This document shows, one piece after another, positions 1,843 to 22,443 of a stretch of DNA of 64,000 nt (positions are counted from its first letter, which is position 1; each line of letters starts with the position of its first letter). The notes beneath the pieces are model-generated. The model searched no databases. It was not told the DNA's origin and saw only the letters and a program-made list of their open reading frames with translations. A program made the position numbers and the translations under genes. Origin of the DNA: a virus. Lineage: Duplodnaviria > Caudoviricetes. The DNA is taken from positions 1 to 64,000 of the IMG/VR virus record IMGVR_UViG_3300044719_000028; one strand, 5' to 3'.

Positions 1843-1850
1843 AATAACGC

Positions 1851-1879
1851 TTGCGCAAGCACTCTAAGCGTGCTATTGT
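1851..1879 (+). promoter_or_regulatory. sigma70-like promoter
   Basis: TTGCGC-17-TATTGT preceded by GC. Confidence 0.5.
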
Positions 1880-1907
1880 GTGCTCCGTAATGACAACGGA
1901 GGAACAT

Positions 1908-2060: not shown

Positions 2061-2073
2061 AGGAGGATATGTC

Positions 2074-2940: not shown

Positions 2941-2946
2941 GGAGGA

Positions 2947-3135
2947 ATGAGCATGTTTCTTATTGTATATCGTGTCAAAGCAACTGGCAGGCTCAAACAA
3001 GCTTTTGTTAGTGCGGACACGAATAGGGAGGCAATAGACATTCTCAAGGGTGAATTCATGGCAGATGCGATTCAGATTGAACAGGTTACAAGTGTAAGCA
3101 AGGGCAGTGTGATTTATCCTGACGGGAGGTTTTAG
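2947..3135 (+). CDS. hypothetical protein (62 aa)
   Basis: GAGGAGG RBS. Confidence 0.65.
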   Translation: MSMFLIVYRVKATGRLKQAFVSADTNREAIDILKGEFMADAIQIEQVTSVSKGSVIYPDGRF

Positions 3136-3136
3136 G

Positions 3137-3475
3137 ATGAAAATCATCAAGTCACAAGATAAGGTGAAGGGCGCTATTGAATCCTTCCTTGCGAATTATC
3201 CGCAGTATAACACTCCGAATGCGCCATTCTACACAAAGGAGCGTTATAACAGAGTGATTGCGCTTGATCCTGACAAAGCTACACCGGAAGACATTAAAAG
3301 AGACATTAACTCTTCTTGGGTGATGTCTTTTTGTAGCGAGTGTGGTGGGGAGTTTGATACTGTGATTCAAGTTGGACAAGAGCCGGATTATGATAGCTGT
3401 ACAGCGTATCTGTGTAAAGACTGTCTGTATAAAGCATTTGATATGGTGGCTAAAGCGGAGTGTGAGAAATGTTAA
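3137..3475 (+). CDS. putative Zn-binding protein (112 aa)
   Basis: CSEC and CKDC pairs. Confidence 0.7.
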   Translation: MKIIKSQDKVKGAIESFLANYPQYNTPNAPFYTKERYNRVIALDPDKATPEDIKRDINSSWVMSFCSECGGEFDTVIQVGQEPDYDSCTAYLCKDCLYKAFDMVAKAECEKC

Positions 3476-3639
3476 TTGATATTGACCAGTTAATAGAGAT
3501 TGTACGAGACTCTACACAATGGAGAACTGTACTTGCACCACATCAGAACTGGAGTGATGAATACTCAGAGATTGATATAACGTATGTAGATGCAGACAAG
3601 TTGTTAGAAGGGTTGCACAATCTGAAGGATACAAAATAA
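3469..3639 (+). CDS. hypothetical protein (56 aa)
   Basis: Hand-translated MLIDIDQLIEIVRDS... Confidence 0.6.
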   Translation: MLIDIDQLIEIVRDSTQWRTVLAPHQNWSDEYSEIDITYVDADKLLEGLHNLKDTK

Positions 3640-3653
3640 TTTGCTTAACATGC

Positions 3654-3683
3654 TTGACAAGCCCCTCTTGCGTGGTCTACTAT
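3654..3683 (+). promoter_or_regulatory. sigma70-like early promoter
   Basis: gcTTGACA-18-TACTAT, then A/C-rich leader and GGAGAACATCATG. Confidence 0.65.
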
Positions 3684-3720
3684 ACACACATGGCAGGACA
3701 AACAACCACAGGAGAACATC

Positions 3721-3936
3721 ATGTTGAAAGCAAACCCGAAAGCCCCTACCGTCGCACATACACACTACCAGATTGGCACGTATCAAAGCGGGTTCCGTCT
3801 GTTCATGTTCACTAAGCCCGGTATCAATCTGTTGGACCAATACATTGCGGCAGTGTGCGAGGATATCGAACCGTTGCGCATGATTGCTGAAAAATTGCAG
3901 CTTGAGTATAGCGGCTGGCCGCATGCTAATTGCTAA
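3721..3936 (+). CDS. hypothetical protein (71 aa)
   Basis: AGGAG RBS behind its own promoter. Confidence 0.7.
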   Translation: MLKANPKAPTVAHTHYQIGTYQSGFRLFMFTKPGINLLDQYIAAVCEDIEPLRMIAEKLQLEYSGWPHANC

Positions 3937-3946
3937 AGGATTGGTA

Positions 3947-4174
3947 ATGTCTAATCCCAATCGTACGGCTTACATGGCACAAAAGCCTCGTAAACTGGTT
4001 GCGACAAACGAACAAATGTTTTCAACCCGCACGGAGGCTAACAGTGAAGCTGAAAAGCGGAAAGCACAAGGGGAGACAAACGTACGTGTAACTGCGCTCA
4101 CAACAGGGCCACGTACAAAGCCTGTAAGACGCTATATCGTGCGGACATATGTTTCTATAGGGGAGGTGAAATAA
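3947..4174 (+). CDS. basic hypothetical protein (75 aa)
   Basis: AAGGA RBS, MSNPNRTAYM... Confidence 0.6.
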   Translation: MSNPNRTAYMAQKPRKLVATNEQMFSTRTEANSEAEKRKAQGETNVRVTALTTGPRTKPVRRYIVRTYVSIGEVK

Positions 4175-4299
4175 TGACTAACGAAGCACTCCAAAAGGCA
4201 CAGAAAGCCATGCAGAGGGCGCTTAAGAAGTATGGTGCCAATTCTCCGCAATTTCAGGCTGCACAGCGTAAGTGGGTGGCGCTGAAGGAAAGAGCTTGA
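4174..4299 (+). CDS. small basic helical protein (41 aa)
   Basis: GGAGG RBS, MTNEALQKAQKAMQRALKKYG...; followed by a terminator. Confidence 0.6.
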   Translation: MTNEALQKAQKAMQRALKKYGANSPQFQAAQRKWVALKERA

Positions 4300-4330
4300 C
4301 AGCAATCGTCCGTCAGGACAATTCCAGACA

Positions 4331-4352
4331 AGGGCGCACAAGCGCCTTTTGT
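4331..4352 (+). terminator. intrinsic terminator
   Basis: AAGGGCGC-ACAA-GCGCCTTTT followed by T-rich run. Confidence 0.7.
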
Positions 4353-4367
4353 TGTGTGTTATGGTTG

Positions 4368-4764
4368 CACATCTGCTGGATGCAATCAATTGCCTCTCAG
4401 GGATGCATTTATGTTGTCTCTTGTATTCGCTTTGCTCTTGCACCAAACAAATTTAATCTTACTCGCATGCGCTCGCGCTTAAAGGCATTGCACCTAACAA
4501 TCATATGATGTACAATGATCTTATCTATTCGTTCCACTGCGCAGGCGAAGCCGTAGCAGAGGGACAGAGAGTAAGTAAGAATCTTAGTCTTTAAGAACGT
4601 TCTTCTATTAAAGTCTATTCTTTTATCTCTTCCTATATATCTATTAGTACGGTCTCACAGAGGCAATTAATTGCATCACTGAGAGGCATATCAACATCTG
4701 TGAGATGCATTTGTTGATCTAGAAGATGCATTTCATCCTGTGTATATTGCCTCTCACAGAGGCA
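4368..4764. repeat. iteron/operator-like array of 17-bp sites TGC(A/C)TC-N5-GA(T/G)GCA; putative replication origin
   Basis: Copies at 4368, 4390, 4649, 4672, 4693, 4714, 4748, flanking an AT-rich tract at about 4571-4648. Confidence 0.7.
4488..4516 (+). promoter_or_regulatory. sigma70-like promoter firing into the AT-rich tract (no ORF downstream)
   Basis: TTGCAC-17-TACAAT. Confidence 0.5.
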
Positions 4765-4771
4765 TTTAAAC

Positions 4772-4800
4772 TTGACAGTATCAGTTGCTCGTGGTACATT
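4772..4800 (+). promoter_or_regulatory. promoter of the CopG-like/Rep-like operon
   Basis: TTGACA-17-TACATT with TGn extension; 7 bp downstream of the last repeat. Confidence 0.7.
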
Positions 4801-4827
4801 ATAAGAGTAGCAACCAAAGGAATTATC

Positions 4828-5028
4828 ATGAAACTTGATCTTAACATTGATCTTATCCGATGGATCGATGCTAACAAAGCTGGCATGTCTAGACCGGCAT
4901 TCATCATCCAAAAGTTAAGAGAACTAATGCAAGACACGAAGCCGAACGGCGATATCCATACGAAAGGACAACAAAATGACGAAGTACATCTCCCCGATGG
5001 AGTTAACCACACTCCTAAACAGGTCTAA
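4828..5028 (+). CDS. ribbon-helix-helix (CopG/Arc-like) DNA-binding protein (66 aa)
   Basis: Beta strand MKLDLN, helix IDLIRWIDAN, turn AGMS, helix RPAFIIQKLRELM; start trimmed to the RBS-preceded ATG. Confidence 0.6.
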   Translation: MKLDLNIDLIRWIDANKAGMSRPAFIIQKLRELMQDTKPNGDIHTKGQQNDEVHLPDGVNHTPKQV

Positions 5029-5596
5029 AGATTCTGTTCTCAATCTCACAGTTTACGAATTCCGTTTTCTGTCGTTCCTACTGGCTCGCGTCAACAAGGA
5101 TAAGCTATCCACTCACGGATACCTTGCTTGGCCCGGTACAGACCAAATCATAGAATTTACAGGGTTATCCAAGCCAACAATCGAACGCTCGCGCAAGACT
5201 CTTGTTAGTGCGGGGTGGATGCAGTACACGCCGGGGCATGGTGCAGGTTCTAGCAATCATTACTATATCAATGCGTCTAAGATCATTAGTGCATACGTGG
5301 CATCAGGGTATGATGCACCAGATAAAGAGATTTATGCAACTGTTGTGCAAGAGAAAGCAAAGAAGCAACACAAACGCAACACTGATAATCTTGTGCAGAA
5401 CAAGAAAGCCAAACAAGAAGAGAAATCACCTGAGCCAGTGCAAGATGAGCCTAAAACCAATCCTGACGGTTCTCCCAAGTGGTTTAAGAACGGGACACGT
5501 CGATACACATGGGATGACGTTATGATGCCCCCTAAGCCCGTTAATGCGGCCCCAAGCGCATCGACATATTATGAAGACCTAGAAGCACCGTTCTAG
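4976..5596 (+). CDS. winged-HTH replication initiator-like protein (206 aa)
   Basis: AWPGTDQIIEFTGLSKPTIERSRKTLVSAGW...SSNHYYIN resembles HTH_36-type phage/plasmid initiators; acidic C-terminus EDLEAPF. Confidence 0.75.
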   Translation: MTKYISPMELTTLLNRSKDSVLNLTVYEFRFLSFLLARVNKDKLSTHGYLAWPGTDQIIEFTGLSKPTIERSRKTLVSAGWMQYTPGHGAGSSNHYYINASKIISAYVASGYDAPDKEIYATVVQEKAKKQHKRNTDNLVQNKKAKQEEKSPEPVQDEPKTNPDGSPKWFKNGTRRYTWDDVMMPPKPVNAAPSASTYYEDLEAPF

Positions 5597-5601
5597 CATA
5601 C

Positions 5602-5622
5602 GCCGCCTCCGGGCGGCTTTTC
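5602..5622 (+). terminator. intrinsic terminator
   Basis: GCCGCC-TCCG-GGCGGC-TTTTCT. Confidence 0.75.
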
Positions 5623-5665
5623 TATTTGTCGCCTAACAAACACAAAAATAAACAAGAATTCAAGC

Positions 5666-5694
5666 TTGACACTGACAGATAGCACAAGTAACAT
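5666..5694 (+). promoter_or_regulatory. sigma70-like early promoter
   Basis: gcTTGACA-17-TAACAT. Confidence 0.65.
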
Positions 5695-5730
5695 AAGCAC
5701 ATGTTCAACAAATCACTAACGGAGCCTACC

Positions 5731-5961
5731 ATGTACCAAACCATGCTCAAGAATCAACGTGTAACGTTCGTCTCTGATGTCATCCAAGCTATCAACCATA
5801 GCCCGTTCTATCACTGGTATAACGAAAAGAGCAATCGTTATGTAGTTAGCAACAAGGATAACAAAATGACTGTTGCCGCAGGACTCACCAAAGAAGAGGC
5901 GGAAGCTTGTGTAATGTTTAAAGCTAATCAGCATATCTACAACCGAGTGCAGAAAGGATAA
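5731..5961 (+). CDS. hypothetical protein (76 aa)
   Basis: GGAG RBS behind promoter. Confidence 0.65.
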   Translation: MYQTMLKNQRVTFVSDVIQAINHSPFYHWYNEKSNRYVVSNKDNKMTVAAGLTKEEAEACVMFKANQHIYNRVQKG

Positions 5962-5965
5962 CATC

Positions 5966-6064
5966 ATGTGCAACAAATGCTCTAAGTGTGGGAAAGTGTT
6001 GCCAATCTTACGGTATGAGGGATTGTGCGAAGGATTGCCGGAATATGTTGTAAATGGCTATTGA
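5966..6064 (+). CDS. tiny Cys-rich protein (32 aa)
   Basis: Hand-translated MCNKCSKCGKVLP...; AGGA-ACATCATG start context. Confidence 0.4.
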   Translation: MCNKCSKCGKVLPILRYEGLCEGLPEYVVNGY

Positions 6065-6082
6065 GAATTTTACTTAAAGTGC

Positions 6083-6111
6083 TTGCATTCTTAAACGAGT
6101 GCAGGCATACT
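6083..6111 (+). promoter_or_regulatory. sigma70-like early promoter
   Basis: gtgcTTGCAT-17-CATACT. Confidence 0.55.
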
Positions 6112-6147
6112 AAACACATCTGAACAACACATCTACAGGCTAACATC

Positions 6148-6294
6148 ATGAACATCAAAGACAAAATCATTCGCACTGTGCAAATCGTTGCTAGTGTTGT
6201 TGTAGTGGGGATTCCAGCCGATCTTATGATTCGTGGTGTTGATAGCTTCATGGGACAGTTTGTGATTAATGCAATGCTTGGTAAACTCTTCTGA
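6148..6294 (+). CDS. small membrane protein (48 aa)
   Basis: Hand-translated MNIKDKIIRTVQIVASVVVVGIPADL...; hydrophobic. Confidence 0.55.
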   Translation: MNIKDKIIRTVQIVASVVVVGIPADLMIRGVDSFMGQFVINAMLGKLF

Positions 6295-6303
6295 GGAAAC
6301 ATC

Positions 6304-6537
6304 ATGCTCATCACTCGTGCAATCCTCTCTTTCCTCCTTATGGCTGGCTTTGTAGGCTACATCGTCGTAGATCAACAGCAAACACAAGAACGTGTTGCAA
6401 AGCGTGAAGCTGAGCATGCTAAATATCGTGCTTATGAATTGTGCAAGATGTATTTCATCAATGCTGAAACGACGAAGCAATATGGCTTGGAAGTGGGGAT
6501 GGAAGCTAACAAGCATTGTGTGGATAGGCTGAACTAA
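6304..6537 (+). CDS. membrane-anchored protein (77 aa)
   Basis: N-terminal TM segment AILSFLLMAGFVGYIVV. Confidence 0.65.
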   Translation: MLITRAILSFLLMAGFVGYIVVDQQQTQERVAKREAEHAKYRAYELCKMYFINAETTKQYGLEVGMEANKHCVDRLN

Positions 6538-6544
6538 ATTGTGC

Positions 6545-6573
6545 TTGCAAAGCTTAAGAGTCTTAGATAGAAT
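6545..6573 (+). promoter_or_regulatory. sigma70-like early promoter
   Basis: gtgcTTGCAA-17-TAGAAT. Confidence 0.6.
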
Positions 6574-6607
6574 GTAGGCATTGGATAACAAACACGGAGC
6601 AACGAAC

Positions 6608-6775
6608 ATGACAATCATCCCTCTCTTCGTCATCTTCCTAATGTGCATCTTCGCAATGTTCCTTGTCATGAGTATTGTAGAAGACATGAAAAAGGATGAG
6701 CCTGTAGACATGTCTGTGTTTGAGCAACAAAGCTGGGAAGCTCGGCAGAAACGTTTTCAACAAATGGGGATTTAA
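6608..6775 (+). CDS. membrane-anchored protein (55 aa)
   Basis: TM segment IIPLFVIFLMCIFAMFLVMSIV. Confidence 0.6.
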   Translation: MTIIPLFVIFLMCIFAMFLVMSIVEDMKKDEPVDMSVFEQQSWEARQKRFQQMGI

Positions 6776-6777
6776 TC

Positions 6778-7023
6778 ATGAAACGTAAAAACTACATCAT
6801 CACTAGCAGTGTTGGTCATCGTGTTGTCAAGCATGCTTGGAATAGCTCCATTCGTGAGATTGAGAAGCTTGTACAAGAGATGGCACAACAAGAACATACT
6901 ACCTATACCCTAACAGGTACAAACAGTGTTAAAGAAGGTTTTAACCATGTGTCAGGCTATCGTGAGTGGCAGAGTAAAGCAACAGGCAAGTATGTGATGT
7001 TTGATGTAGAGTTGGAGAAATAA
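6778..7023 (+). CDS. hypothetical protein (81 aa)
   Basis: Packed ORF. Confidence 0.65.
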   Translation: MKRKNYIITSSVGHRVVKHAWNSSIREIEKLVQEMAQQEHTTYTLTGTNSVKEGFNHVSGYREWQSKATGKYVMFDVELEK

Positions 7024-7025
7024 AC

Positions 7026-7412
7026 ATGGCTAAGAACGACAGCATTTATACGTTAGAAAGAAAAATAAAACTCTTGACTGGTGCAAGAAAATTTATCAAA
7101 AATAAAGAGTGTGACTACATCTGTGTTGCCATTTCTAAAAGTGTAGATTATAGGTGGAATTACTACATAGAGAATCAAATATCTTGGGAGTTGAGAGATT
7201 ACATTTCAAAAGAACTGAGAAACGATCTGACGCTTAATTGTTGGATGAGTAGACGAAGGAAATACAATAGTTTTAAGCAAACACCAGAATCTATGAGGAA
7301 ATATCGCCTACAATGGATTGATTGGATGTTGTCATGTCTGCGGGAAGACCTCGCATCTAAGACAACCAGCACTCGAAGCAAAGCTTCTCAGCTGTTATTA
7401 CAAGAATCTTAA
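7026..7412 (+). CDS. hypothetical protein (128 aa)
   Basis: GGAG RBS; AT-rich ORF. Confidence 0.65.
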   Translation: MAKNDSIYTLERKIKLLTGARKFIKNKECDYICVAISKSVDYRWNYYIENQISWELRDYISKELRNDLTLNCWMSRRRKYNSFKQTPESMRKYRLQWIDWMLSCLREDLASKTTSTRSKASQLLLQES

Positions 7413-7438
7413 ATAGTTTCTTTTCTATCGAAAAGTGC

Positions 7439-7466
7439 TTGACTTGCTTTGTAGGAGTGCTATACT
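7439..7466 (+). promoter_or_regulatory. sigma70-like early promoter
   Basis: gtgcTTGACT-16-TATACT. Confidence 0.6.
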
Positions 7467-7509
7467 GTTCTACATGGGCAGCACGAATAACATTGTTAAG
7501 GAGAACATC

Positions 7510-7719
7510 ATGGCAACGAACCAGCAACAGGTAGAACAAGCAATCAAAGAGATTCGTGCAACTAAGCGTAAGGTGAATGGTGGTGTTAACAAGAATCTCG
7601 TGTTTATGATTCTGAAGCGGTATAAGGCTGCTAACTGGTGGAACACGTACGAGGATAACGAGTTCTCGAAAGCTATTTCCAATGCAGCTTGGGATTTTAT
7701 TGAGAGTGACGGTAAGTGA
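7510..7719 (+). CDS. hypothetical protein (69 aa)
   Basis: AAGGAGAACATCATG start. Confidence 0.7.
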   Translation: MATNQQQVEQAIKEIRATKRKVNGGVNKNLVFMILKRYKAANWWNTYEDNEFSKAISNAAWDFIESDGK

Positions 7720-7755
7720 TGCAATGCAGCGCCCTACGGGGCGCATAAATAGTGC

Positions 7756-7783
7756 TTGCAAATCTTTGCAAATGCTGTAGAAT
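7756..7783 (+). promoter_or_regulatory. sigma70-like early promoter
   Basis: gtgcTTGCAA-16-TAGAAT, downstream of hairpin GCGCCC-TACG-GGGCGC (7729-7744). Confidence 0.55.
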
Positions 7784-7818
7784 GTATTTTATTGGATAAC
7801 ACAACAAGGACAACAATC

Positions 7819-8034
7819 ATGAAAATCCCTAAAGCATTTACCAATCATCCCGGTGTAGCAAAAGTTGTAGCAGGAGGAGACCAAGGAAGTGATTCTAAGT
7901 ATTGGGTGTTCTTCAAGGATGGATATGGATTTTATGAGCATGGTCAACGTGACAATTATTGCTGGGTTTGTGGTGGCTGTGCTGTAGACAGTGTTGCAGA
8001 GTTCAAAGAACTAAACATTGAGAAGAAAGCATAA
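7819..8034 (+). CDS. hypothetical protein (71 aa)
   Basis: AAGGA RBS; weak similarity to 9721..9954. Confidence 0.65.
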   Translation: MKIPKAFTNHPGVAKVVAGGDQGSDSKYWVFFKDGYGFYEHGQRDNYCWVCGGCAVDSVAEFKELNIEKKA

Positions 8035-8035
8035 C

Positions 8036-8239
8036 ATGAACGCAATCAAAGATTACAAACTTGTGTGGTACAACTTCTCTGGCGATGTCTTCTTCGACAT
8101 GTACACGGAAGACGAAGCTTACACGCTTTACGACAACAAGAAAGTTACCAGTGTACAAGTTGAATTGATTCCTCCGTACGGTAACACTTGCCTTGTGTGG
8201 AATCGTAATTGCAATCGTGAATTTGAGTGCTGGAAATGA
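8036..8239 (+). CDS. hypothetical protein (67 aa)
   Basis: Packed ORF, ACATG start. Confidence 0.6.
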   Translation: MNAIKDYKLVWYNFSGDVFFDMYTEDEAYTLYDNKKVTSVQVELIPPYGNTCLVWNRNCNREFECWK

Positions 8240-8484
8240 AGACAGTAGACGAGATTGTTTCTTGTGTAAAAGTGGGAGAAATGCATAAATTGTCTTTCTC
8301 TTGCTTCTACGATGGCACGGTACACCAAGAATATAATGCAATTATTCATAGCATCACAAAGCATAACGAGTATTGCTATCAAGTGTTTTACCAAGTAGGT
8401 GAATGGGGAGCATATGGGTTGATTGTTCCTAGATGGTATGACAGAAATAGACAACGAATTGTTGATATTGAAAGCCTAACATGA
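8236..8484 (+). CDS. hypothetical protein (82 aa)
   Basis: ATGA overlap. Confidence 0.6.
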   Translation: MKTVDEIVSCVKVGEMHKLSFSCFYDGTVHQEYNAIIHSITKHNEYCYQVFYQVGEWGAYGLIVPRWYDRNRQRIVDIESLT

Positions 8485-8888
8485 ACTCCGGACTCCGCAT
8501 TGTCTCCCTCTCCATAGCATCCCTAGCCATGATGTACGCCAGTGTGCAAGCTAGTGAATCCTACGCACAAGAGCATCCTATGATGGGTATGCAACTTAAG
8601 ATGGAATATTGCATAGACGCTGTAAGGGAAGCTAACAAGCCCATGCAAGACATCGGATGCAAGGTAGGACATGGGTACGGTAAGGAAGGGGTTAAGAGGG
8701 ACATCATCAGGCAGCTTGTAGAAAGAATTAACAAGAATAAACAAAGCTACGAATATGTGCAGCTTGTCAGCATTGAGGGGTTACGGTTAGTATTCAGGGA
8801 TGACTCAGTAGGCTCAAAGGGAACCGTTATTGTGTGGCAGAATGCTGATACAGGACGGATGCGTATAAAGATGGAAAGGGAGGAATGA
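8481..8888 (+). CDS. putative exported protein (135 aa)
   Basis: Signal-peptide-like N-terminus MNSGLRIVSLSIASLAMMYASVQA. Confidence 0.65.
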   Translation: MNSGLRIVSLSIASLAMMYASVQASESYAQEHPMMGMQLKMEYCIDAVREANKPMQDIGCKVGHGYGKEGVKRDIIRQLVERINKNKQSYEYVQLVSIEGLRLVFRDDSVGSKGTVIVWQNADTGRMRIKMEREE

Positions 8889-8942
8889 AGCCTGTTGCTT
8901 CGCACAGTCTTCCTTTCTCGTTTACACTCGAAAGTGATTATT

Positions 8943-9173
8943 ATGTATATGCTATTTGGTGGACAATGTTATTACGCTAAAGGTGGATTGAATGATTTGT
9001 TGTTGTGCACAGAGTCAGCACAAGATGCTATCAGCTACGCTAGGATGCTGGAAGAGACAACAGGACATAAACAAGATGGGATAGAATGGTGGCATGTTGT
9101 GTTTGTTGATTCTGCAACACAGACAGCGGTTGTAGTTAAACGTAGTGAATGTACACCACATGGGGAGGAATAA
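8943..9173 (+). CDS. hypothetical protein (76 aa)
   Basis: MYMLFGGQCYYAKGG... common phage pattern. Confidence 0.6.
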   Translation: MYMLFGGQCYYAKGGLNDLLLCTESAQDAISYARMLEETTGHKQDGIEWWHVVFVDSATQTAVVVKRSECTPHGEE

Positions 9174-9175
9174 TC

Positions 9176-9373
9176 ATGAAAGTTAAAATCGAATTCGATA
9201 CGGACATCAATAACAGCTTTGATGAGATGGGTATGTATGATCGTGATGTTGTGGCAAATGTTCTAAGGCATCTTGCTAACAAAGTGGAAAGTGGGGTTGT
9301 GAACGATTACAACGTGATTGAGAAAGATGATCATTACCCAATCGGTATGTTTTCTCTGCTGAAGAGTAAATAA
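9176..9373 (+). CDS. hypothetical protein (65 aa)
   Basis: GAGGA RBS. Confidence 0.65.
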   Translation: MKVKIEFDTDINNSFDEMGMYDRDVVANVLRHLANKVESGVVNDYNVIEKDDHYPIGMFSLLKSK

Positions 9374-9414
9374 ATTTGCTTGAAGTCTTATCCAACTTTG
9401 TTGTCTAAATGTGC

Positions 9415-9442
9415 TTGACAGGGTGTGTGGACAGTGTAGAAT
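9415..9442 (+). promoter_or_regulatory. sigma70-like early promoter
   Basis: gtgcTTGACA-16-TAGAAT. Confidence 0.65.
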
Positions 9443-9478
9443 GAACTCATCGAAACAACACACCTAACGGAGAGCATC

Positions 9479-9718
9479 ATGGCAGCAGCTAAAAACACCT
9501 ACAAAATCATCCTGAGCAATGGCAAGGTTGAGACGACTAAGAGCGTCAAAGAATACACTCATGCTGTCTGCGGTATCTACAAAGAAGAAATGCCGGAACA
9601 AGTGTTTGCACTGTGCGGCAGTCTTGAACTGGCAGAAAAGCAACTTGCTAAATGGTCCGGTAGTGCAACCTTCATTGCCGCTAAAAAGGCATACATTGTT
9701 GCTGTGGAAAAGGTGTAA
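9479..9718 (+). CDS. hypothetical protein (79 aa)
   Basis: GGAG RBS behind own promoter; YTHA motif shared with 10041..10313. Confidence 0.7.
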   Translation: MAAAKNTYKIILSNGKVETTKSVKEYTHAVCGIYKEEMPEQVFALCGSLELAEKQLAKWSGSATFIAAKKAYIVAVEKV

Positions 9719-9720
9719 TC

Positions 9721-9954
9721 ATGAACGCTAACAAACTCCCTAAGACGGTTCAAAAGTACGCCAACAAAATCATGGAATGGGATGATGAAAGATGGGCAGG
9801 GAATAGTCTAATCATCACTCTGGAGTATGGCTGGTGCTTTGACGAGAAAGGGCTGCATTGCTTCGGTGTTGACACTGTAGCAGCAGCTAAGAAAGATTTG
9901 GCAACAGTGATGCCGTGTGATTGTGAGAGGTGTATTAGCAAGGTAGGTGGATAA
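9721..9954 (+). CDS. hypothetical protein (77 aa)
   Basis: Packed ORF with C-terminal CDCERC. Confidence 0.65.
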   Translation: MNANKLPKTVQKYANKIMEWDDERWAGNSLIITLEYGWCFDEKGLHCFGVDTVAAAKKDLATVMPCDCERCISKVGG

Positions 9955-9972
9955 ACTTTCTTCGAAATGTGC

Positions 9973-10001
9973 TTGTGTTGCTTCGTACATTGTGTAATAA
10001 T
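9973..10001 (+). promoter_or_regulatory. probable sigma70-like early promoter
   Basis: gtgcTTGTGT...TAATAAT with the same leader context as its neighbours. Confidence 0.45.
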
Positions 10002-10040
10002 CCTTACATCGATTGAACAACACAAACAAAGGAGAACATC

Positions 10041-10313
10041 ATGGCAACTATCAAAGCAACCACTAAAGCAGGGCAAACTGTTACGATTCAAGATAGCAAG
10101 GTTGCATACACACATGCTTGGTTTGTCACTACAGAGAATGGCACTCGTATTGTGGAGAAAGGCTTTACAGAAAAAGGAGAACAAGCCGCTAAGCGTGCTG
10201 GTGCAAGAGCTATGGCAAGTAACAAGGATTGTGGCTTTCGTAACGAGCAAGGCAAGTTTGTTTCTTGGAAAACTCTTGGCCTAGATTATGAAGTTGTAGC
10301 GGTTGAAAAATAA
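10041..10313 (+). CDS. hypothetical protein (90 aa)
   Basis: AAGGAGAACATCATG start. Confidence 0.7.
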   Translation: MATIKATTKAGQTVTIQDSKVAYTHAWFVTTENGTRIVEKGFTEKGEQAAKRAGARAMASNKDCGFRNEQGKFVSWKTLGLDYEVVAVEK

Positions 10314-10316
10314 TGC

Positions 10317-10345
10317 TTGACGTGCTTAGGTATAGTGCTTATACT
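10317..10345 (+). promoter_or_regulatory. sigma70-like early promoter
   Basis: gcTTGACG-17-TATACT. Confidence 0.65.
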
Positions 10346-10380
10346 GAACACATCTTAAATCATTTAGTAAGGAAAACATC

Positions 10381-10653
10381 ATGCAAACCACTACGATCAA
10401 GCTGACATTGAACAACGAAACCCGCGAAGTTGAGGCTTTCGTAGAAGAGTTGCCTTTCTACACCGAAGTGCGTGTAAGTGGTTTGAACATGACGACTACT
10501 AAGGGAAATCAACAGCACAAAGGCTGGGCATGTTTCGTACTGAAGAAAGATAGCAATGAATACAGCATCAAGGACGCAATCGATATCCGCTATGTAGGCA
10601 TGCGCGGTAATGGTCATGCAGCTAAAAGCCTGTTCCGCTATGTGGGGTTCTGA
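10381..10653 (+). CDS. hypothetical protein (90 aa)
   Basis: AAGGA RBS behind own promoter. Confidence 0.7.
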   Translation: MQTTTIKLTLNNETREVEAFVEELPFYTEVRVSGLNMTTTKGNQQHKGWACFVLKKDSNEYSIKDAIDIRYVGMRGNGHAAKSLFRYVGF

Positions 10654-10684
10654 GACAGACAAGGTAGGGAAAGCATCACAGAAC

Positions 10685-10711
10685 GGGCCTCTTCGGAGGC
10701 TCTTTTCTTTT
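10685..10711 (+). terminator. intrinsic terminator (copy 1 of a 33-bp repeat)
   Basis: GGGCCTC-TTCG-GAGGCTC-TTTTCTTTT. Confidence 0.8.
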
Positions 10712-10853
10712 GTGCGATAGCTTTTCGTGATGCTGTATAGCTGTGCAATATAGTGGATTTGCAGGTTCATTATAATGGACAGGGTTATTATAACGTGTTG
10801 TGAGTAATACGGAAATTACAGAGGAAGTATTCTAAAGATTCTTAAGAAAGTGC

Positions 10854-10882
10854 TTGCATTGCTTAGAGGGCTTTGCTATAGT
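10854..10882 (+). promoter_or_regulatory. sigma70-like early promoter
   Basis: gtgcTTGCAT-17-TATAGT. Confidence 0.6.
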
Positions 10883-10937
10883 TACTACATCGACGCAGCA
10901 AACAACCCAAAACGACACTTTCTCAGGAGCAACTATC

Positions 10938-11180
10938 ATGGAACACAAAGTCATCGAGCAAACCATCGGCCAGTTCATCATCCGTGCAGTGTTCGCACCA
11001 GAAGAACTCCACGATGGCATCACCGTGTTTGTCAAGCACCCGGAAGGTGACATGGTATGCTGTGATCACTTCGGACATGACATGCATAAAGCTAAGGAGT
11101 TCGTAAAGCGCAATAGCAAAGGTAAGATGAAGTTTATTTGGAATGACATGATTGGTAGCTACGAATTGATCGCCAAGTGA
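10938..11180 (+). CDS. hypothetical protein (80 aa)
   Basis: AGGAG RBS behind own promoter. Confidence 0.7.
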   Translation: MEHKVIEQTIGQFIIRAVFAPEELHDGITVFVKHPEGDMVCCDHFGHDMHKAKEFVKRNSKGKMKFIWNDMIGSYELIAK

Positions 11181-11188
11181 TACAGAAT

Positions 11189-11214
11189 GGGCCTCTGCGG
11201 AGGCTCTTTTCTTT
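11189..11214 (+). terminator. intrinsic terminator (copy 2 of a 33-bp repeat)
   Basis: GGGCCTC-TGCG-GAGGCTC-TTTTCTTT. Confidence 0.8.
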
Positions 11215-11870
11215 GCTCTAATGAGTGTGTACACACAGGTTGACAAGATGCGTAGATCGGTAATTGGGGACATAGTGCTATGTAGGTCTATTATTTAGAC
11301 CGTTATTGATTTAGCAAAACTTCATTCCTGTTCGGTAATCGCACAACCTTGGGCATCAACGAGGGGTATATCAAGCTACCTGATATCAGTTTACCTTACA
11401 TTGATTCATAACCAAATGGTTATCTATTGCAGCATGCCTGCACAACACGGCGTGATAGCGTGACGAGACAGCGCCTACCAGCAGCAGGGCAGCAGCTAAC
11501 GAGGCGCTAGGGCTGTGAGAGGACAATCAGCGTAGGTAGACGTAGGACGAGCGAATAGAGGGCCGCAGAGGGGCGCTATGAGGCTCAGAGAGGGGATTGT
11601 GTGGGTGGAGCTAGGCAGGGATGGGCAAGCGTGCGCTGATGGGAGGGTGCGAGGAGTAGGCTAGAGGAGGGCAAATTGAGGAATGTATATGCCCGTTTAG
11701 GTTTGTAGATGACCCGGCTCGGATATTTTGCAGGGCAGAGAGGGGCGTTTTTCCGTGCTGGCTGGCCCTATTAAGCAACGAAACCGCCTCAGCAAATATT
11801 TACGACCTACCCCTGCCAAAGTGATCGCACAAGATGCCACTTGCCAAAAAATTTTCATACCAAAAATGCC
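11215..11870. other. non-coding convergence region (candidate genome terminus/packaging or recombination region)
   Basis: No credible ORF; several palindromes, G-rich + strand tract, repeated TGCCAAAA. Confidence 0.45.
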
Positions 11871-11900
11871 AAAAAGGAGGTATGCCCGAAAGCACCCTCC
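11871..11900 (-). terminator. intrinsic terminator after the recombinase genes
   Basis: On - strand GGAGGGTGC-TTTCGG-GCATACCTCC-TTTTT. Confidence 0.65.
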
Positions 11901-11976
11901 TTCTGCACAGATATTTTCTGTAGATATTTCTTTAGAATCAACCCACTAGATGTGTTTCCTAAAGTAAATTTTTAAA

Positions 11977-12642
11977 TTAATTCCACCTAGAAATCACCCT
12001 GCAAATGCTTGCTGCACTCCAATCGCCACCTCGTGCAGTAGGAATGTTCAGAGCATTCATTTCTTTAGCGATTTCCCCATACGTCATCCCACAATTCTTC
12101 ATGCGCTCGATTGGTGGACGCACATGAGCGGCAAACCTGTCAGCTTTCTCTTTGATGACAGCCGTTGCCTTCTCACGGGCTTCATTCAGGTTCGTCCGAT
12201 TGCCAAGAATGACACCACGAGCCTTAGCAGCAGCCAACCCTGCTTTGGTTCGCATCCCAATCATCTTGCGCTCTTTCTCAGCAAGCCCTGCAAAGATTGT
12301 CCCAACAAACTCGTCGTGCTCTTGTCCAAGATCGATTGCAACAACCAGCTTCTTTTTCTGGATCAGTTCACGCGAGATGTCGAAGTCACGGCTGCAACGA
12401 TCACTCTTCGTCACAACCACTTGAGCCTTCATTTTCTTCGCCATAGTCAGCGCCATAGACATGACAGGGCGATCTTTCAAAGGAGTGCTGCCAGAGATAA
12501 CCTCGTCCATCACAGTGATGAGATTGTAGTTGTTCCGCTGCGCCCACAGTTCGATTTCTGCACGCTGAGATTCAAGGCCGTTCTTCGACTGACCTTGTTC
12601 GCGGGTAGAGACCCGGCACACTCCAATGAAAGACTTTTTCAT
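11977..12642 (-). CDS. serine recombinase (resolvase/invertase family, 221 aa)
   Basis: RVST nucleophile motif, DRCSR motif, helix AEKERKMIGMRTKAGLAAAKARG, C-terminal EIAKEMNALNIPTARGGDWS DNA-binding domain. Confidence 0.92.
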   Translation of the reverse strand: MKKSFIGVCRVSTREQGQSKNGLESQRAEIELWAQRNNYNLITVMDEVISGSTPLKDRPVMSMALTMAKKMKAQVVVTKSDRCSRDFDISRELIQKKKLVVAIDLGQEHDEFVGTIFAGLAEKERKMIGMRTKAGLAAAKARGVILGNRTNLNEAREKATAVIKEKADRFAAHVRPPIERMKNCGMTYGEIAKEMNALNIPTARGGDWSAASICRVISRWN

Positions 12643-18387: not shown

Positions 18388-18416
18388 TTGACAAGAATCG
18401 TACTCGCTGTTACAAT
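18388..18416 (+). promoter_or_regulatory. rightward promoter of a divergent pair
   Basis: TTGACA-17-TACAAT with TGn. Confidence 0.7.
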
Positions 18417-18830: not shown

Positions 18831-18859
18831 TTGACAAGATTGGTAAGATGATTTATAAT
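18831..18859 (+). promoter_or_regulatory. consensus sigma70 promoter for the tRNA/ncRNA locus
   Basis: TTGACA-17-TATAAT. Confidence 0.8.
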
Positions 18860-18865
18860 TTGTTT

Positions 18866-19155
18866 TGTTGAGTGAGTCGATCTGAAAGTGTGATCCGGTT
18901 AGCACTGAAGCGCTTCAACATTGTTATGGAAATCTTGCAGCGGCCTACGACTTAACCGCGTGCGGGTTGATAACGAAAAACAGGTGAACCACTACCTTTA
19001 AGTGTGGACTTGAAATTTCTCCTACCAGTATGCCCTTGACTGGACCCAAGACGGGCTGTAGAGGCTTTGTAATAGGCCATCTACAAAGCCATTCTCTGAT
19101 AGCAACCGTTGCCCCTCCTCCTCGGCCTATTGGATTGAGTGGCTCTGTAGATTAA
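18866..19155 (+). ncRNA. candidate structured leader RNA
   Basis: No ORF; multiple stems and a possible pseudoknot (AATAGGCC/GGCCTATT). Confidence 0.35.
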
Positions 19156-19159
19156 ATTT

Positions 19160-19235
<76 letters not shown>

Positions 19236-19242
19236 GTACAAT

Positions 19243-19315
19243 AGCGGGGTAGTGTAACGGTAGCACGTTAGGCTCATAACCTATCAGTCCAGTTCGACTC
19301 TGGCGACCGCAACCA
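19243..19315 (+). tRNA. trnM: tRNA-Met(CAT), initiator-like, degenerate or possibly pseudo
   Basis: Loop CT-CAT-AA, TTCGACT, CCA; 1:72 mismatch plus mismatches at 6:67, 7:66 and 49:65. Confidence 0.65.
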
Positions 19316-19321
19316 ATCATA

Positions 19322-19397
19322 GCGGGATTAGCTCAATCGGCAGAGCGCTTTCCTTCCAAGTAAGAGGTAGTCGGATCGTAACCGACATCCCGCTCCA
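19322..19397 (+). tRNA. trnG: tRNA-Gly(TCC)
   Basis: Perfect acceptor stem GCGGGAT/ATCCCGC, loop CT-TCC-AA, CCA; unusual T-loop ATCGTAA. Confidence 0.9.
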
Positions 19398-19399
19398 GA

Positions 19400-19625
19400 A
19401 TCCTACTACCTTGGGATTGTTAGCCTTACGGCTGACGAGGCTTCTACGAGAAGCTAATGAGCACGGCGGAATTCCGTGCCACAAGAACACAAAGGCCACT
19501 ACGAATAGCGGCCCTCTGAACTTTCCTCATACGGCAGAGGTTTTATCGAACAGCACCCCTTCCAGTGCAAATGTTGAAGGGAACCTAACGAAGCCAAACT
19601 CATTAGGCAAGTTCTGCGAATATGA
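19400..19625 (+). ncRNA. candidate structured RNA (three-hairpin cloverleaf plus further stems)
   Basis: TAGCC/GGCTG, GCTTCT/AGAAGC, GCACGG/CCGTGC, CCTCTG/CAGAGG, CCCTTC/GAAGGG. Confidence 0.35.
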
Positions 19626-19653
19626 TAGCACGGAAAAGTCACAAGGAGAACGT

Positions 19654-19890
19654 ATGTCAGAAGAAAATAAAACTTATCATTGGGACAGCGGCAAGGGAAG
19701 TCGTCCACGTTCGTATAGTGTCTCTCAAGAAGAGTTTGGTAAGAATTGGGATGCTATATTTGGTAAGAAGGATAACACTTGTATTAAATGCCCTCGCGAT
19801 GTAGAGATGAGGTGCAACTACTGTGGGCTGAAACAGTCTGACGGTAGCGTGAATAATCCGGTTGCAGCATTATCGTCGGAAGGTCAATAA
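19654..19890 (+). CDS. conserved small phage protein (78 aa)
   Basis: AAGGAG RBS; GKGSRPRS..SQEEFGKNWDAIFGKK motif common in phages. Confidence 0.65.
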   Translation: MSEENKTYHWDSGKGSRPRSYSVSQEEFGKNWDAIFGKKDNTCIKCPRDVEMRCNYCGLKQSDGSVNNPVAALSSEGQ

Positions 19891-19920
19891 GCCATCGTGG
19901 GCTGACGCTAATACACGTAC

Positions 19921-20150
19921 TAAATTTGCTCAAGGGACTAGCTCCGACGAGCATATCCGCGAAAGCGGGCACATGGCGAGGGTGGCTGTAGGTCACTGAA
20001 GAGGACGGGCAGGTTGGCTGGCGCCGTTCCACCAATACGAGCGTGGATTAGACGAGCGCTCATTAAAGATAGGTCGTCCCGCGTATGCACCCGTCGTGGT
20101 CTGCTCGTAAAGAGCGCGTAGCGGCAGTCTAGGCAGCGGCTAGACAATAT
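19921..20150 (+). ncRNA. candidate large structured ncRNA
   Basis: GC-rich, no RBS-led ORF, at least 7 stems including CCGC-GAAA-GCGG; ends at a terminator. Confidence 0.5.
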
Positions 20151-20158
20151 TCTTAGGA

Positions 20159-20192
20159 GGCTGCACGGCAGGGATGCTGTGTGGCTTTTTGT
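20159..20192 (+). terminator. intrinsic terminator
   Basis: GCTGCACGGCA-GGGA-TGCTGTGTGGC-TTTTT. Confidence 0.7.
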
Positions 20193-20205
20193 TGTTTCAA
20201 GTTTT

Positions 20206-20282
20206 GTGGCGAACGGACTAGCTATCCTTCTGACGCTCTACCGTCAGATAGTCACTCTTATTAACTCGTAGAGGAGATAAAA
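20206..20282 (+). promoter_or_regulatory. structured translational leader of the HNH gene
   Basis: GTGGC/GTCAC junction with two hairpins; loop CTCTAC complementary to GTAGAG overlapping the RBS. Confidence 0.5.
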
Positions 20283-21017
20283 ATGTTTTGTAAAAACGAA
20301 GATTTATCTGGTATGAAGTTTGGACGTTGGACCGCTACAACGCTTGCTCAAGCAGGAACAACAAGGTTGTGGAACTGCATTTGCGAATGTGGGACAAAGA
20401 GGCCTGTTAACGCCCAGCGTTTGAAGAATGGTACGTCTAAAAGTTGTGGGTGTCTTCAGAAAGAACTAGTTGCTGCTAGGAGCAAGACACACGGGCACTC
20501 AAGGAAAGACGGTTATAGTAACTGGATGGAAATGAAAGATCGTTGTTACAACGAAGATAGTCCTTGCTACAAATATTATGGTGCAGTAGGAGTGTACGTC
20601 GCAGATGACGTTATGGATTATGAGGATTTCATCAAAGCAATTGGGCCAAAACCGAGTAAAGATCATAGCGTAGGCAGATTAGATAACTCAAAACCTTATT
20701 GTGCAGATAACATTCGTTGGGAAACAAAAGCACAACAGGCTCGTAATCGTACGATGATTAGCTCTAATACGTCTGGAATAACAGGCGTCTATCTTGACAA
20801 AAATGTTGTCGATGGAGTTGTCTACGGGCGTTGGGTGGCAAAATACACCGACCTTACGGGTAAGCAAGTTAAGAAAAGTTTTAGCGTTCTGAAGTACGGT
20901 TACGAGGAAGCTTTCGCTCTAGCTGTGGATTTCCGAAACAATGGGATTCGACTCCTTCAAGAGTTAGGGGCAGATTATGGGGCGAAGCACGGAATGAAGA
21001 GGGAGAAAATTGAATAA
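20283..21017 (+). CDS. HNH/AP2-type free-standing homing endonuclease (244 aa)
   Basis: CICECG..L..G.SKSCGC, RLDN..Y..DNIRW.T..QQ.RN, C-terminal AP2 (SGITGV...WVA...KKSFS...A...R). Confidence 0.85.
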   Translation: MFCKNEDLSGMKFGRWTATTLAQAGTTRLWNCICECGTKRPVNAQRLKNGTSKSCGCLQKELVAARSKTHGHSRKDGYSNWMEMKDRCYNEDSPCYKYYGAVGVYVADDVMDYEDFIKAIGPKPSKDHSVGRLDNSKPYCADNIRWETKAQQARNRTMISSNTSGITGVYLDKNVVDGVVYGRWVAKYTDLTGKQVKKSFSVLKYGYEEAFALAVDFRNNGIRLLQELGADYGAKHGMKREKIE

Positions 21018-22443
21018 GAAGAAAGAAAAAATCAAGCTCGGGCCGGATTCGGTCACTCATAAACGCTTCCTAGACTGCACAAGTGACTACGTGATCTTTG
21101 GTGGCGGCGCAGGTTGCGGTAAATCCCACCAAGCCCTTCTTAAAGTCCTTAAATATAAGGACGATCCAAATTTCCGTGGAATTTTTATACGTGAAACTTC
21201 GGTCCAGCTTTCTCAAGCCGGTGGCCTGTACCAAGAGGCAGAAAAGATGTGGTCACAATTCGGTGCAAAGTTTAAAACGCACCCGACCATGACTGCGACG
21301 TTTCCTAGCGGAGCGCAGGTACAGTTTAAAGTCTGCGGGGCGGACCGTGACATCACCAACTTCGACGGTGGTCAGTTTTCTCTGGTTGTATTCGACGAGG
21401 CACAAAACCACACGGATGTTCAAATCCGCTATCTAGAGTCTCGTATCCGCTCACAGGCGAAAGGCCCACATCAACTCATATGTACTTGTAATCCCCGCAG
21501 GGATAGTCATTTAATGCCTTTTGTCTCGTGGTATTTAGATCAGGAGACAGGTATTCCAATTCCTGAACGATCAGGTGTTGAGCGTTATTATGCATCGTAT
21601 TGTGGCTCTATGGTTTTTGGAGATACTAAAGAAGAACTCCTTGAAAAATACCCGGGAGTATCTCCGCAGACCTACGTTTTTATCAGTGCCACAATTAAGG
21701 ACAACCCTAGGATGAAAGTCCTCAACCCCGGCTACGTTGCGCGACTAGAAAACCTTAAACGTGTCGAGAGGGAAAGGCTACTCTTAGGGTCGTGGTTCGC
21801 CAAACAGGAGTCGCAGGGGCTGTTCCGAAGGTCGTGGTGCGAGATTGTTGATTGCGTTCCAGCTAAAGTAACATCACGCCACCGGGGGATGGATTTGGCA
21901 AGCACACTTGCATCTGAAAGTAATCCAAACCCCGACTGGACGGCATCTGTAAGAATCTCAAAATCTGAAGGTTATTACTATGTAGAGCACGTCGAGAGAT
22001 ACCGAGAGCTTACTCATAGTGTTTTAGAGCATATTGCGGAAACCTCCAAGAAGGATTATCACGAGCTTGGAGTTAAAGTCCCTGTGACAATCCCGAAAGA
22101 CCCCGGCGCAGCAGCAGCTGCTGCTAATATGTTCTTTGTTAAAACCCTTGTGGAAAATGGTGTAGATGTAAGATCAGAAGGTGTTAGCGGGCACACAGGT
22201 AAACTTGCCCGTATGCAACCTTTCTTATCTCTTGCCGAGGCGGGGTGGGTGAGGGTGGTTAAGGGTGATTGGAATGAAATGTGGTTCAATGAGCTAGAAG
22301 ACTACATCGACGGCAACAGAAATCAGAAGGATGACATGTGGGATGCGACAGCCTCCGCAGCGAAAGCAGTTATGAAAAACAACACGATGCCGTCGTTCGC
22401 CATTCCTCTAAACACCCAACCCTCACCAATCCCCTCCCTATAA
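21010..22443 (+). CDS. terL: terminase large subunit
   Basis: GGGAGCGKS Walker A, VVFDEAQ Walker B, LICTCNP, nuclease GMDLA...DDMWDA; TTG start. Confidence 0.95.
   Translation: MNKKKEKIKLGPDSVTHKRFLDCTSDYVIFGGGAGCGKSHQALLKVLKYKDDPNFRGIFIRETSVQLSQAGGLYQEAEKMWSQFGAKFKTHPTMTATFPSGAQVQFKVCGADRDITNFDGGQFSLVVFDEAQNHTDVQIRYLESRIRSQAKGPHQLICTCNPRRDSHLMPFVSWYLDQETGIPIPERSGVERYYASYCGSMVFGDTKEELLEKYPGVSPQTYVFISATIKDNPRMKVLNPGYVARLENLKRVERERLLLGSWFAKQESQGLFRRSWCEIVDCVPAKVTSRHRGMDLASTLASESNPNPDWTASVRISKSEGYYYVEHVERYRELTHSVLEHIAETSKKDYHELGVKVPVTIPKDPGAAAAAANMFFVKTLVENGVDVRSEGVSGHTGKLARMQPFLSLAEAGWVRVVKGDWNEMWFNELEDYIDGNRNQKDDMWDATASAAKAVMKNNTMPSFAIPLNTQPSPIPSL

Follow-up and report, generated by a model that had tools for sequence, protein, structure and literature searches.

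A structured RNA element of about 340 nucleotides (nt) was delimited at 19857-20197 on the + strand of a 64,000-nt stretch of tailed-phage DNA (the window: positions 1 to 64,000 of the 88,744-base IMG/VR record IMGVR_UViG_3300044719_000028, Caudoviricetes), where it follows a group of transfer RNA (tRNA) genes and ends at a strong intrinsic terminator ahead of the structural operon. The element belongs to an RNA family that is absent from Rfam 15, in a comparison that excludes the 10,006 candidate viral RNAs of PMC10690425. It is built of modules, its fold is under selection on one strand, and its universal part is a core of about 65 nt, which occupies a fixed position between predicted transcription signals in phages that otherwise share very little. 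We propose that this core could be a cis-acting leader RNA which sets read-through of the terminator at the boundary between early and late genes, resembling the put RNA of phage HK022 in its working but unrelated to it, and we give this reading a probability of roughly 45%.

A first-pass annotation of the window, made from the letters alone, had proposed a multi-stem non-coding RNA (ncRNA) at 19921..20150. Structure is indeed present there, but conservation begins at 19857, 64 nt further 5', and extends through the terminator to 20197, and a 5' pseudoknot domain had been missed. In 5' to 3' order, the element consists of this pseudoknot domain, three hairpins, the two-hairpin core, an optional 3' module and the intrinsic terminator, as follows.

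19857..19882, + strand: conserved 5' segment CYGGUUGCAG...GUCG, with G4 G5 U6 U7 G8 and U20 C21 G22 invariant in 27 sequences
19890-19893 with 19900-19903, + strand: hairpin Pa, 97.2% paired
19895-19899 (Pa loop) with 19914-19918, + strand: pseudoknot PK-a, the downstream segment reading CUCGU/CACGU, 94.1% paired
19927..19953, + strand: helix P1 (UGCUC/GAGCA) enclosing hairpin P1b (GGA/UCC), each 92.6% paired
19956..19969, + strand: hairpin P2 with a GAAA tetraloop, supported in alignment A2 (described below)
19972..20038, + strand: core motif, comprising a purine junction (GGNGAGGG), P3, the junction CUGAAG, P4 and the tail CACCAAU
19981-19997, + strand: hairpin P3, 100% paired
20003-20029, + strand: hairpin P4 with a bulged G and a loop of about 11 nt, 98.1% paired, all six pairs covarying
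20039..20145, + strand: optional 3' module, present in 7 of 27 homologues
20039-20061, + strand: hairpin of the 3' module, its loop (20051-20055) pairing with 20074-20078 as a second pseudoknot
20080-20089, + strand: mini-hairpin of the 3' module
20091-20097 with 20121-20127, + strand: helix of the 3' module, enclosing a GUAAA-loop hairpin at 20103-20115
20128-20144, + strand: last hairpin of the 3' module
20154..20197, + strand: strong intrinsic terminator, with a long G-U-containing stem (20154-20191), a GGGA loop and UUUUUGUUGUUU, including the U-tract

Homologues were collected from TerL-related contigs (TerL, terminase large subunit) and by three DNA-pattern scans of IMG/VR, giving 62 loci with 25 distinct copies, and the addition of loci L011 and L012 brought the set to 27 distinct sequences, which were aligned with mafft L-INS-i. 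In the resulting alignment A2 (19857-20038, 27 distinct homologues, 37 pairs in the written structure), 90.9% of cells fell in standard pairs, compared with 27.0-44.3% when the pairing partners were slid by 1-3 columns. Changes on both sides were seen in 18 pairs (5-9 in the slid controls), the covariation score was 0.388 against at most 0.076 in controls, and none of 500 shuffles attained any of the observed measures, a control that overstates significance here since the sequences are mutually related. The slid controls, together with independent stems across five phage lineages, are the stronger evidence. For the 3' module (six distinct sequences), 98.3% of cells were paired, compared with 20.7-44.3% after sliding, and two-sided changes were seen in 11 pairs (at most one in the slid controls). 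The core was aligned separately (alignment A4: 32 sequences, 30 distinct, five phage lineages as reported, with L121 and L122 left out); here 97.0% of cells were paired (27.8-45.6% slid), 14 of the 16 pairs had changed on both sides, and the covariation score was 0.745, against at most 0.082 in controls.

The penultimate base of the P3 loop touches the W of GGUWG in the P4 loop, a contact detected in a blind scan and found as UA in 18 and AU in 8 sequences, and the extension of P4 by two pairs across the bulged G is backed by GC:24 and AU:4. Within PK-a, one pair is AU in 16 and UA in 11 sequences with none unpaired, and the blind scan added a further pseudoknot pair at 19894-19921 (alignment columns 38-65), which is GC in 19 and AU in 8 and therefore paired in 27 of 27. 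Three pairs of P1 changed on both sides, the P2 stem was swapped for other complementary sequences in three relatives (L004, L006 and L009), and the second pseudoknot occurs among the phages as GACGA/UCGUC, UGUGC/GCACA and GGUGC/GCACC. No credible pairing partner was found for the 5' segment 19857..19882 in a de novo covariation scan of all column pairs. This segment overlaps the last 34 nt of an open reading frame (ORF) at 19654-19890; in relatives, the same nucleotides are read in another frame, follow a different ORF or stand just a few bases downstream of a tRNA, and its conservation is therefore not protein-coding.

The bases that change also indicate the strand. G-U cells outnumbered A-C cells by 89:11 in A2 and by 90:3 in the core alignment, showing that selection acts on the + strand RNA, and the minus strand had no excess folding (z -0.15).

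Every motif quoted in the first-pass annotation was found at its coordinates (ACGAGC at 19947, 20037 and 20052; GCTCGT at 20103; GGACTAGCT at 19935 and 20215; GTGGC at 19982 and GTCAC at 19992; GACGGG at 20004; CCCGTC at 20090; GTCTAG at 20127 and CTAGAC at 20140), and the segment is GC-rich as described (0.575 and 0.565, compared with 0.41-0.47 in the flanks) and ends at the terminator. Six of its stems are backed by compensatory changes: TGCTC/GAGCA, the inner GGA/TCC, CCGC-GAAA-GCGG, GTGGC/GTCAC, GCTC-GTAAA-GAGC and GTCTAG/CTAGAC. The GAGCG/CGCTC stem is always paired but never varies; the columns of TTGG/CCAA, a candidate pseudoknot running from the P4 loop to the tail, are likewise invariant. 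The long-range GACGGG/CCCGTC helix has to be given up, since GACGG pairs locally with CCGTTC in P4, where all six pairs covary, and CCCGTC belongs to the helix of the optional module, a region missing in 20 of 27 homologues. Switching among the ACGAGC copies had also been suggested, but each of the three copies sits in a covarying helix, so there is no sign of it. Two pseudoknots do exist, but they are formed by loops with downstream sequences and not by the pairings that had been put forward. Likewise, the segment is not strictly ORF-free, as minus-strand ORFs of 69 and 83 amino acids are present, but these are not conserved in homologues.

Several further pairings and signals were considered. 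An outer GUC/GAC helix around Pa was dropped at 47.5% paired, and nothing credible was seen on inspection for a closing helix from the purine junction to the tail. Four other readings each fail in part of the alignment: CUCGUAACAAA as a boxA-like signal, the AUG of some P3 loops as the start of a leader peptide, GGA loops of the CsrA type, and antiterminator pairings with the terminator.

The proposal of a novel structured ncRNA class was borne out by the strong covariation among the 27 distinct homologues, by the strand-specific selection and by the database searches. With the 4227 models of Rfam 15, which include the tRNA and group I intron families, only three tRNAs were returned, whether the window was searched at gathering thresholds or the interval 19100-20400 at E<=10, and nothing was returned for the element at E<=1 on three relatives. 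The sensitivity of these searches was adequate, as the same search style detected group I introns in the TerL genes of relatives. There was no match by blastn against 50,697 phage records or by an exact 33-nt search in IMG/VR. Pattern scans of metagenomes and a genome collection gave one true match, L072 (the same as L067), next to chance matches (three in metagenomes and one in genomes). A looser loop pattern gave 23 stretches, of which 3 matched by chance within coding sequence, and 2 of the 4 new contigs of the last pattern scan were also chance matches. Two covariance models, R1 and R2, together with the alignment, define this family, which is missing from Rfam.

The core was found in five lineages: the clade of the window (27 distinct sequences), L009, L121, L122 and a group of phages of about 12.5 kb. 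L009, whose TerL is 64% identical to that of the window, carries a full-length, diverged copy (61.4 bits with R1), which begins 7 nt past a tRNA and has another terminator behind it. In L067/L072 (52.9 bits with R1), which belong to the small-phage record G001 described below, only the last ~65 nt align well. The order in L121 is tRNA-Gly, ~185 nt, core, ~100 nt of other structure, terminator, 20 nt and TerL, and in L122 it is tRNA-Tyr, 6 nt, core, terminator and TerL. Model R2 gave one strong copy in each of 5 genomes. Its only extra match, at 8456-8516 on the minus strand (13.2 bits, E 0.28), is probably noise.

The small phages are represented by L102 (G001, 1-12506), a complete genome of 12,506 bases with direct terminal repeats, which is unusually small for a tailed phage and encodes TerL, portal, major head protein, tail fibre and lysin. 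At least 13 relatives of it were found, of 11.5-14.4 kb or as fragments. Among the 14 small-phage loci obtained from a portal-based search, R1 at E<=10 found the core in 12, always about 1 kb upstream of the portal gene; a variant core was found by pattern in L112, and no motif was found in the only ~800 nt available upstream of the portal gene in L115. These phages have neither the 5' domain nor the 3' module, carry no tRNA at the locus, and have the core in front of the portal operon, at a distance of about 4 kb from TerL. The window genome and G001 have only TerL (30-34% identity), portal (29%) and a capsid/head protein (25%) in common (tblastn, E<1e-3), yet big and small phages have almost the same loops and junctions in the core. 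As the RNA is far better conserved than the proteins, a host partner is indicated rather than a phage protein. Across these lineages, the ~65-nt core is the universal part of the element, and the 5' pseudoknot domain and the 3' module would serve as accessories in particular lineages.

The signals around the core also have a common order across the lineages, with a near-consensus sigma70-like promoter, 13 nt to ~1.1 kb, the core, 8 to ~125 nt, an intrinsic terminator and then structural genes. The promoters scored 12/12 in the window, L009 and L114 and 11/12 in L005, L103 and L109, the one in L103 standing only ~13 nt before the core; no promoter was scored for L121 in the consensus scan. The terminators of L103 and L121 were read by eye and are unscored by the scan, and in the more distant lineages the equivalent place is taken by another terminator. 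Within the clade of the window, 27 distinct terminator flanks were compared. The TerL start codon lies 15-18 nt past the U-tract in nine of them, which leaves no room for a promoter; 15 have a common leader of about 85 nt followed by at least 11 different endonuclease ORFs, and in the remaining 3 another endonuclease comes with a promoter of its own. The three small-phage loci scanned showed no + strand sigma70-like promoter from the terminator to the first late ORF. The lack of room in nine of the 27 loci and the lack of a promoter in these three make the late genes appear dependent on read-through. Members of the Q-type antiterminator family were absent from all four genomes searched.

Based on this arrangement, host RNA polymerase would start at the sigma70 promoter, transcribe the tRNAs, the small ORF and then the RNA element, and meet the strong intrinsic terminator directly ahead of the structural operon (TerL, portal and others). 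The core, with its two hairpins joined by the loop-loop contact, would act in cis on the elongating polymerase, or sense a host factor or small ligand, and could thereby set the amount of transcription that passes the terminator into the late genes. A cis role is favoured because the position of the core is invariant in otherwise unrelated phages and because the late genes appear to depend on read-through. The conservation of loops and junctions, with no shared regulator and no Q-type antiterminators, points to a host partner such as RNA polymerase. Such an effect on polymerase fits better than a strand-exchange riboswitch, since the distance between core and terminator varies. In phages, terminators in 5' untranslated regions commonly give a short abundant RNA as well as a read-through mRNA, with both products reported for 34 of 42 in the dataset described in bioRxiv 10.1101/2023.10.13.562163.

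The closest likeness in working is with the putL and putR sites of HK022. The account in PMC9378689 describes put RNA as being about 70 nt long, with two stem-loops, located downstream of early promoters and requiring no phage protein. The element core is 65-69 nt long with two hairpins, lies downstream of a predicted sigma70 promoter and upstream of a terminator dividing earlier from later genes, and has no evident phage protein partner. It differs from put in having a covarying loop-loop contact, in occurring in non-lambdoid soil phages (the listed holders of the window DNA are soil and rhizosphere metagenome runs) and in the pseudoknot domains added in big phages. Moreover, put is a processive antiterminator made of RNA only, which binds the beta' zinc-binding domain of RNA polymerase and suppresses termination in cis, whereas a role of our element in read-through is a prediction.

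A number of observations weigh against the read-through proposal. The promoters and terminators are consensus predictions and not mapped ends, and a late promoter of an unfamiliar type may lie past the terminator in loci with an intervening homing-endonuclease gene. Inspection showed no conserved alternative pairing that would join core and terminator, and P3 and P4 covary whereas the terminator of the window clade does not vary. The folding energy of the element is modest, with a minimum free energy z-score of -1.58 on the + strand and 7 of 100 shuffles folding equally well. A search of the HK022 genome (NC_002166) with R2, filters off, gave a best E of 1.3, and thus no homology with put. The nearest cultured relative, the Pseudomonas phage PAK_P3 (Nankokuvirus, TerL 40% identical), has a strong terminator about 25 nt before TerL yet matches neither R1 nor R2, so the terminator layout is older than, and independent of, the RNA element. 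Furthermore, the same locus of PAK_P3 makes an abundant processed ncRNA between two tRNAs, according to the preprint at bioRxiv 10.1101/2023.10.13.562163.

This last observation leads to the alternative that we take most seriously, a realistic one to which we give less than even odds, namely that the element is a stable trans-acting ncRNA. It would be co-transcribed with the tRNAs and released by tRNA-processing nucleases, and the terminator, no more than the 3' end of the RNA in this reading, would shield it with its hairpin; the target, in host or phage, would lie elsewhere. The element stands at the 3' end of the tRNA unit, starting 7 nt after a tRNA in L009, with the core 6 nt after tRNA-Tyr in L122. 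The syntenic slot of PAK_P3 holds an abundant RNA of ~120 nt with no start of its own, described as confirmed by Northern blot in bioRxiv 10.1101/2023.10.13.562163. Promoter, RNA and terminator (as in L103) are also the normal shape of a small RNA (sRNA) gene, and domains have been gained and lost while the core stayed. However, a trans-acting gene need not be fixed right before the structural operon in phages that share almost nothing else, the small phages have the core in a locus devoid of tRNAs, the PAK_P3 RNA shows no homology to the element, and no target or partner is evident. Roles in cis and in trans are not mutually exclusive. The element could also be a passive folded 3' trailer, with no ligand and no regulation, which stabilises the tRNA transcript, guides its processing or reinforces an insulating terminator; this would fit its constant place beside the terminator that closes a heavily transcribed non-coding unit. 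We consider it improbable, as unpaired loop and junction bases and a covarying loop-loop contact have been kept despite protein identities of 25-34%, a constraint far exceeding the needs of a stabilising hairpin, and as small phages retain the core without any tRNA.

Two further alternatives are much weaker. A signal at the level of DNA, such as a packaging (pac/cos) site recognised by the terminase or a cruciform, is suggested by the adjoining terminase gene in big phages, but it is very improbable because a cruciform or the opposite strand would have A-C mismatches in place of the G-U pairs, contrary to the excess of G-U given above, because the minus strand lacks excess folding, and because the core of the small phages is so distant from TerL. 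The first-pass annotation had raised a partnership with the adjacent HNH nuclease, with the RNA as an OMEGA-like guide or scaffold, from their adjacency in the window and from the 9-mer GGACTAGCT and the GTGGC/GTCAC stem words held in common with the nuclease leader. These words are present, but in relatives they do not co-vary between RNA and leader. In nine of 27 distinct loci no endonuclease is present and TerL directly follows the terminator, 15 have at least 11 different endonuclease ORFs behind one leader, and the core also occurs in the ~12.5-kb phages, which lack this HNH gene. In addition, the protein is an HNH/AP2 homing endonuclease and not of the IscB, IsrB or TnpB type, and the Rfam scans of the window returned no guide-RNA family. 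A guide function is therefore the least credible of all the explanations.

The read-through proposal can be compared with other known arrangements. In lambda, the pR'-tR' region similarly has a constitutive promoter, a short terminated leader and then late genes including terminase. The lambda late leader, the '6S' transcript, does not rely on a conserved RNA fold, as Q is loaded via DNA and a paused polymerase, and no Q-family protein was found in the four genomes searched here. Transcriptional riboswitches also place an intrinsic terminator and genes behind an aptamer-like fold that covaries and has invariant bases in its junctions and loops; the present element differs from them in its variable spacing between core and terminator (8 to ~125 nt), in the lack of a conserved antiterminator pairing on inspection and in belonging to no Rfam class. 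Partial strand mimicry was seen, again by inspection, only in L009 and L103. Stable RNAs are known from tRNA operons, such as species 1 and 2 (RNA C and RNA D) of T4 and 3'ETS-leuZ of E. coli. Like the element, these are non-tRNA RNAs within or trailing a tRNA unit and ending at a terminator, but there is no known sequence relation, and the element is fixed before late genes, also where there are no tRNAs. GOLLD, ROOL and HEARO/OMEGA are likewise structured phage RNAs near tRNAs or nucleases, whereas the element has no Rfam match, measures ~340 nt with a 65-nt core and has no obligate nuclease neighbour. The PAK_P3 RNA (sRNA2, also ncRNA2) occupies the same slot, in the order tRNA-Tyr, sRNA2, tRNA-Gln, terminator and TerL, a few hundred nt upstream of the terminator. 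Its coordinates gave no R1 or R2 match with filters off, and it was observed in a cultured host, whereas the element of the window is predicted from sequence. In L118 (PAK_P3 86216-86720), sRNA2 contains a tRNA T-arm-like stretch, GGUUCGAUUCC.

In the window, minus-strand genes extend up to about 18330, and thereafter the + strand carries promoters, tRNAs, a Cys-rich ORF, the RNA, the terminator, the endonuclease and TerL. The features outside the RNA element are listed below.

18388-18416, + strand: sigma70-like promoter, 11/12 consensus (consensus prediction)
18831..18859, + strand: sigma70-type promoter, TTGACA-17-TATAAT, 12/12 (consensus prediction)
19160..19397, + strand: three tRNA genes (Thr-UGU, a tRNA with anticodon CAU, and Gly-UCC), upstream of the element in the same unit
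19654-19890, + strand: small Cys-rich ORF
20198..20282, + strand: structured 5' leader of the inserted homing-endonuclease gene, outside the RNA element
20283..21017, + strand: HNH/AP2 homing endonuclease (Pfam AP2 1.7e-10; PHROG HNH endonuclease 3.6e-47), an optional insert between terminator and TerL
21010..22443, + strand: TerL (Pfam Terminase_6N 4e-20, Terminase_6C 1.4e-10), first gene of the structural operon behind the terminator

The promoter at 18831..18859 most likely drives the tRNA-RNA unit, judging from its match to consensus and its place. Between this perfect promoter and the first tRNA there are about 300 nt (18860-19159) without a credible ORF, of which 18937-19016 has 82.5% identity to L003:1-79. 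The middle tRNA (19244-19311) was matched by Rfam at 40.1 bits and missed by ARAGORN. Non-coding conservation is seen a second time at 19398-19653, where three or four hairpins separate tRNA-Gly from the small ORF. One of these hairpins has a constant loop with a swapped stem in L021 (GCACGG-CGGAAUU-CCGUGC versus GGCUG-UGGAAUU-CAGCC), and 77% identity is retained at 19403-19495 even in L009.

The 26-nt core of the terminator (20160-20185) is letter-identical in 27 stretches of related contigs, with flanks that are 70-85% identical. It may have been homogenised through homing-associated co-conversion, or it may be the target of the endonucleases. In the endonuclease leader, a hairpin at 20231-20246 has the loop CUCUAC (20236-20241), complementary to GUAGAG (20268-20273), which overlaps the Shine-Dalgarno sequence GAGGAG. 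Loop and pre-Shine-Dalgarno sequence covary in relatives (CUACAC/GUGUAG, CCGUAAU/AUUACGG and CUGUAC/GUACAG), and the pairing looks as if it masks translation of the homing endonuclease. In other loci, for example L086, L088, L090, L093 and L099, the ~85-nt leader stands at the same insertion point, behind the terminator and ahead of TerL, and by this comparison it seems to behave as a common expression cassette for different homing endonucleases. Group I introns interrupt TerL in two relatives (L005:4049-4266, Rfam 85.7 bits; L009:4078-4310, 51.8 bits), unlike the TerL of the window, which is uninterrupted.

A bolder proposition is that the 65-nt core represents a new RNA class, with host RNA polymerase as its target or a host metabolite as its ligand, which turns on the structural genes of several unrelated tailed phages by overriding the boundary terminator; we consider this rather unlikely, although worth stating. 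If the core does work alone, it would count as an antiterminator made of RNA only and unrelated to put, and to our knowledge put and the EAR element of Bacillus are the only antiterminators of this type described. Should the RNA instead act in trans, the result would be a new family of phage ncRNAs that has two pseudoknots and aligns clearly enough to guide the design of experiments. The timing of late genes in most non-model lytic phages is not understood, and the compact fold described here outlasts the phages' own proteins. Control of read-through by this fold, if true, would be a directly testable, protein-free timing switch for late genes and could be used as a portable genetic part.

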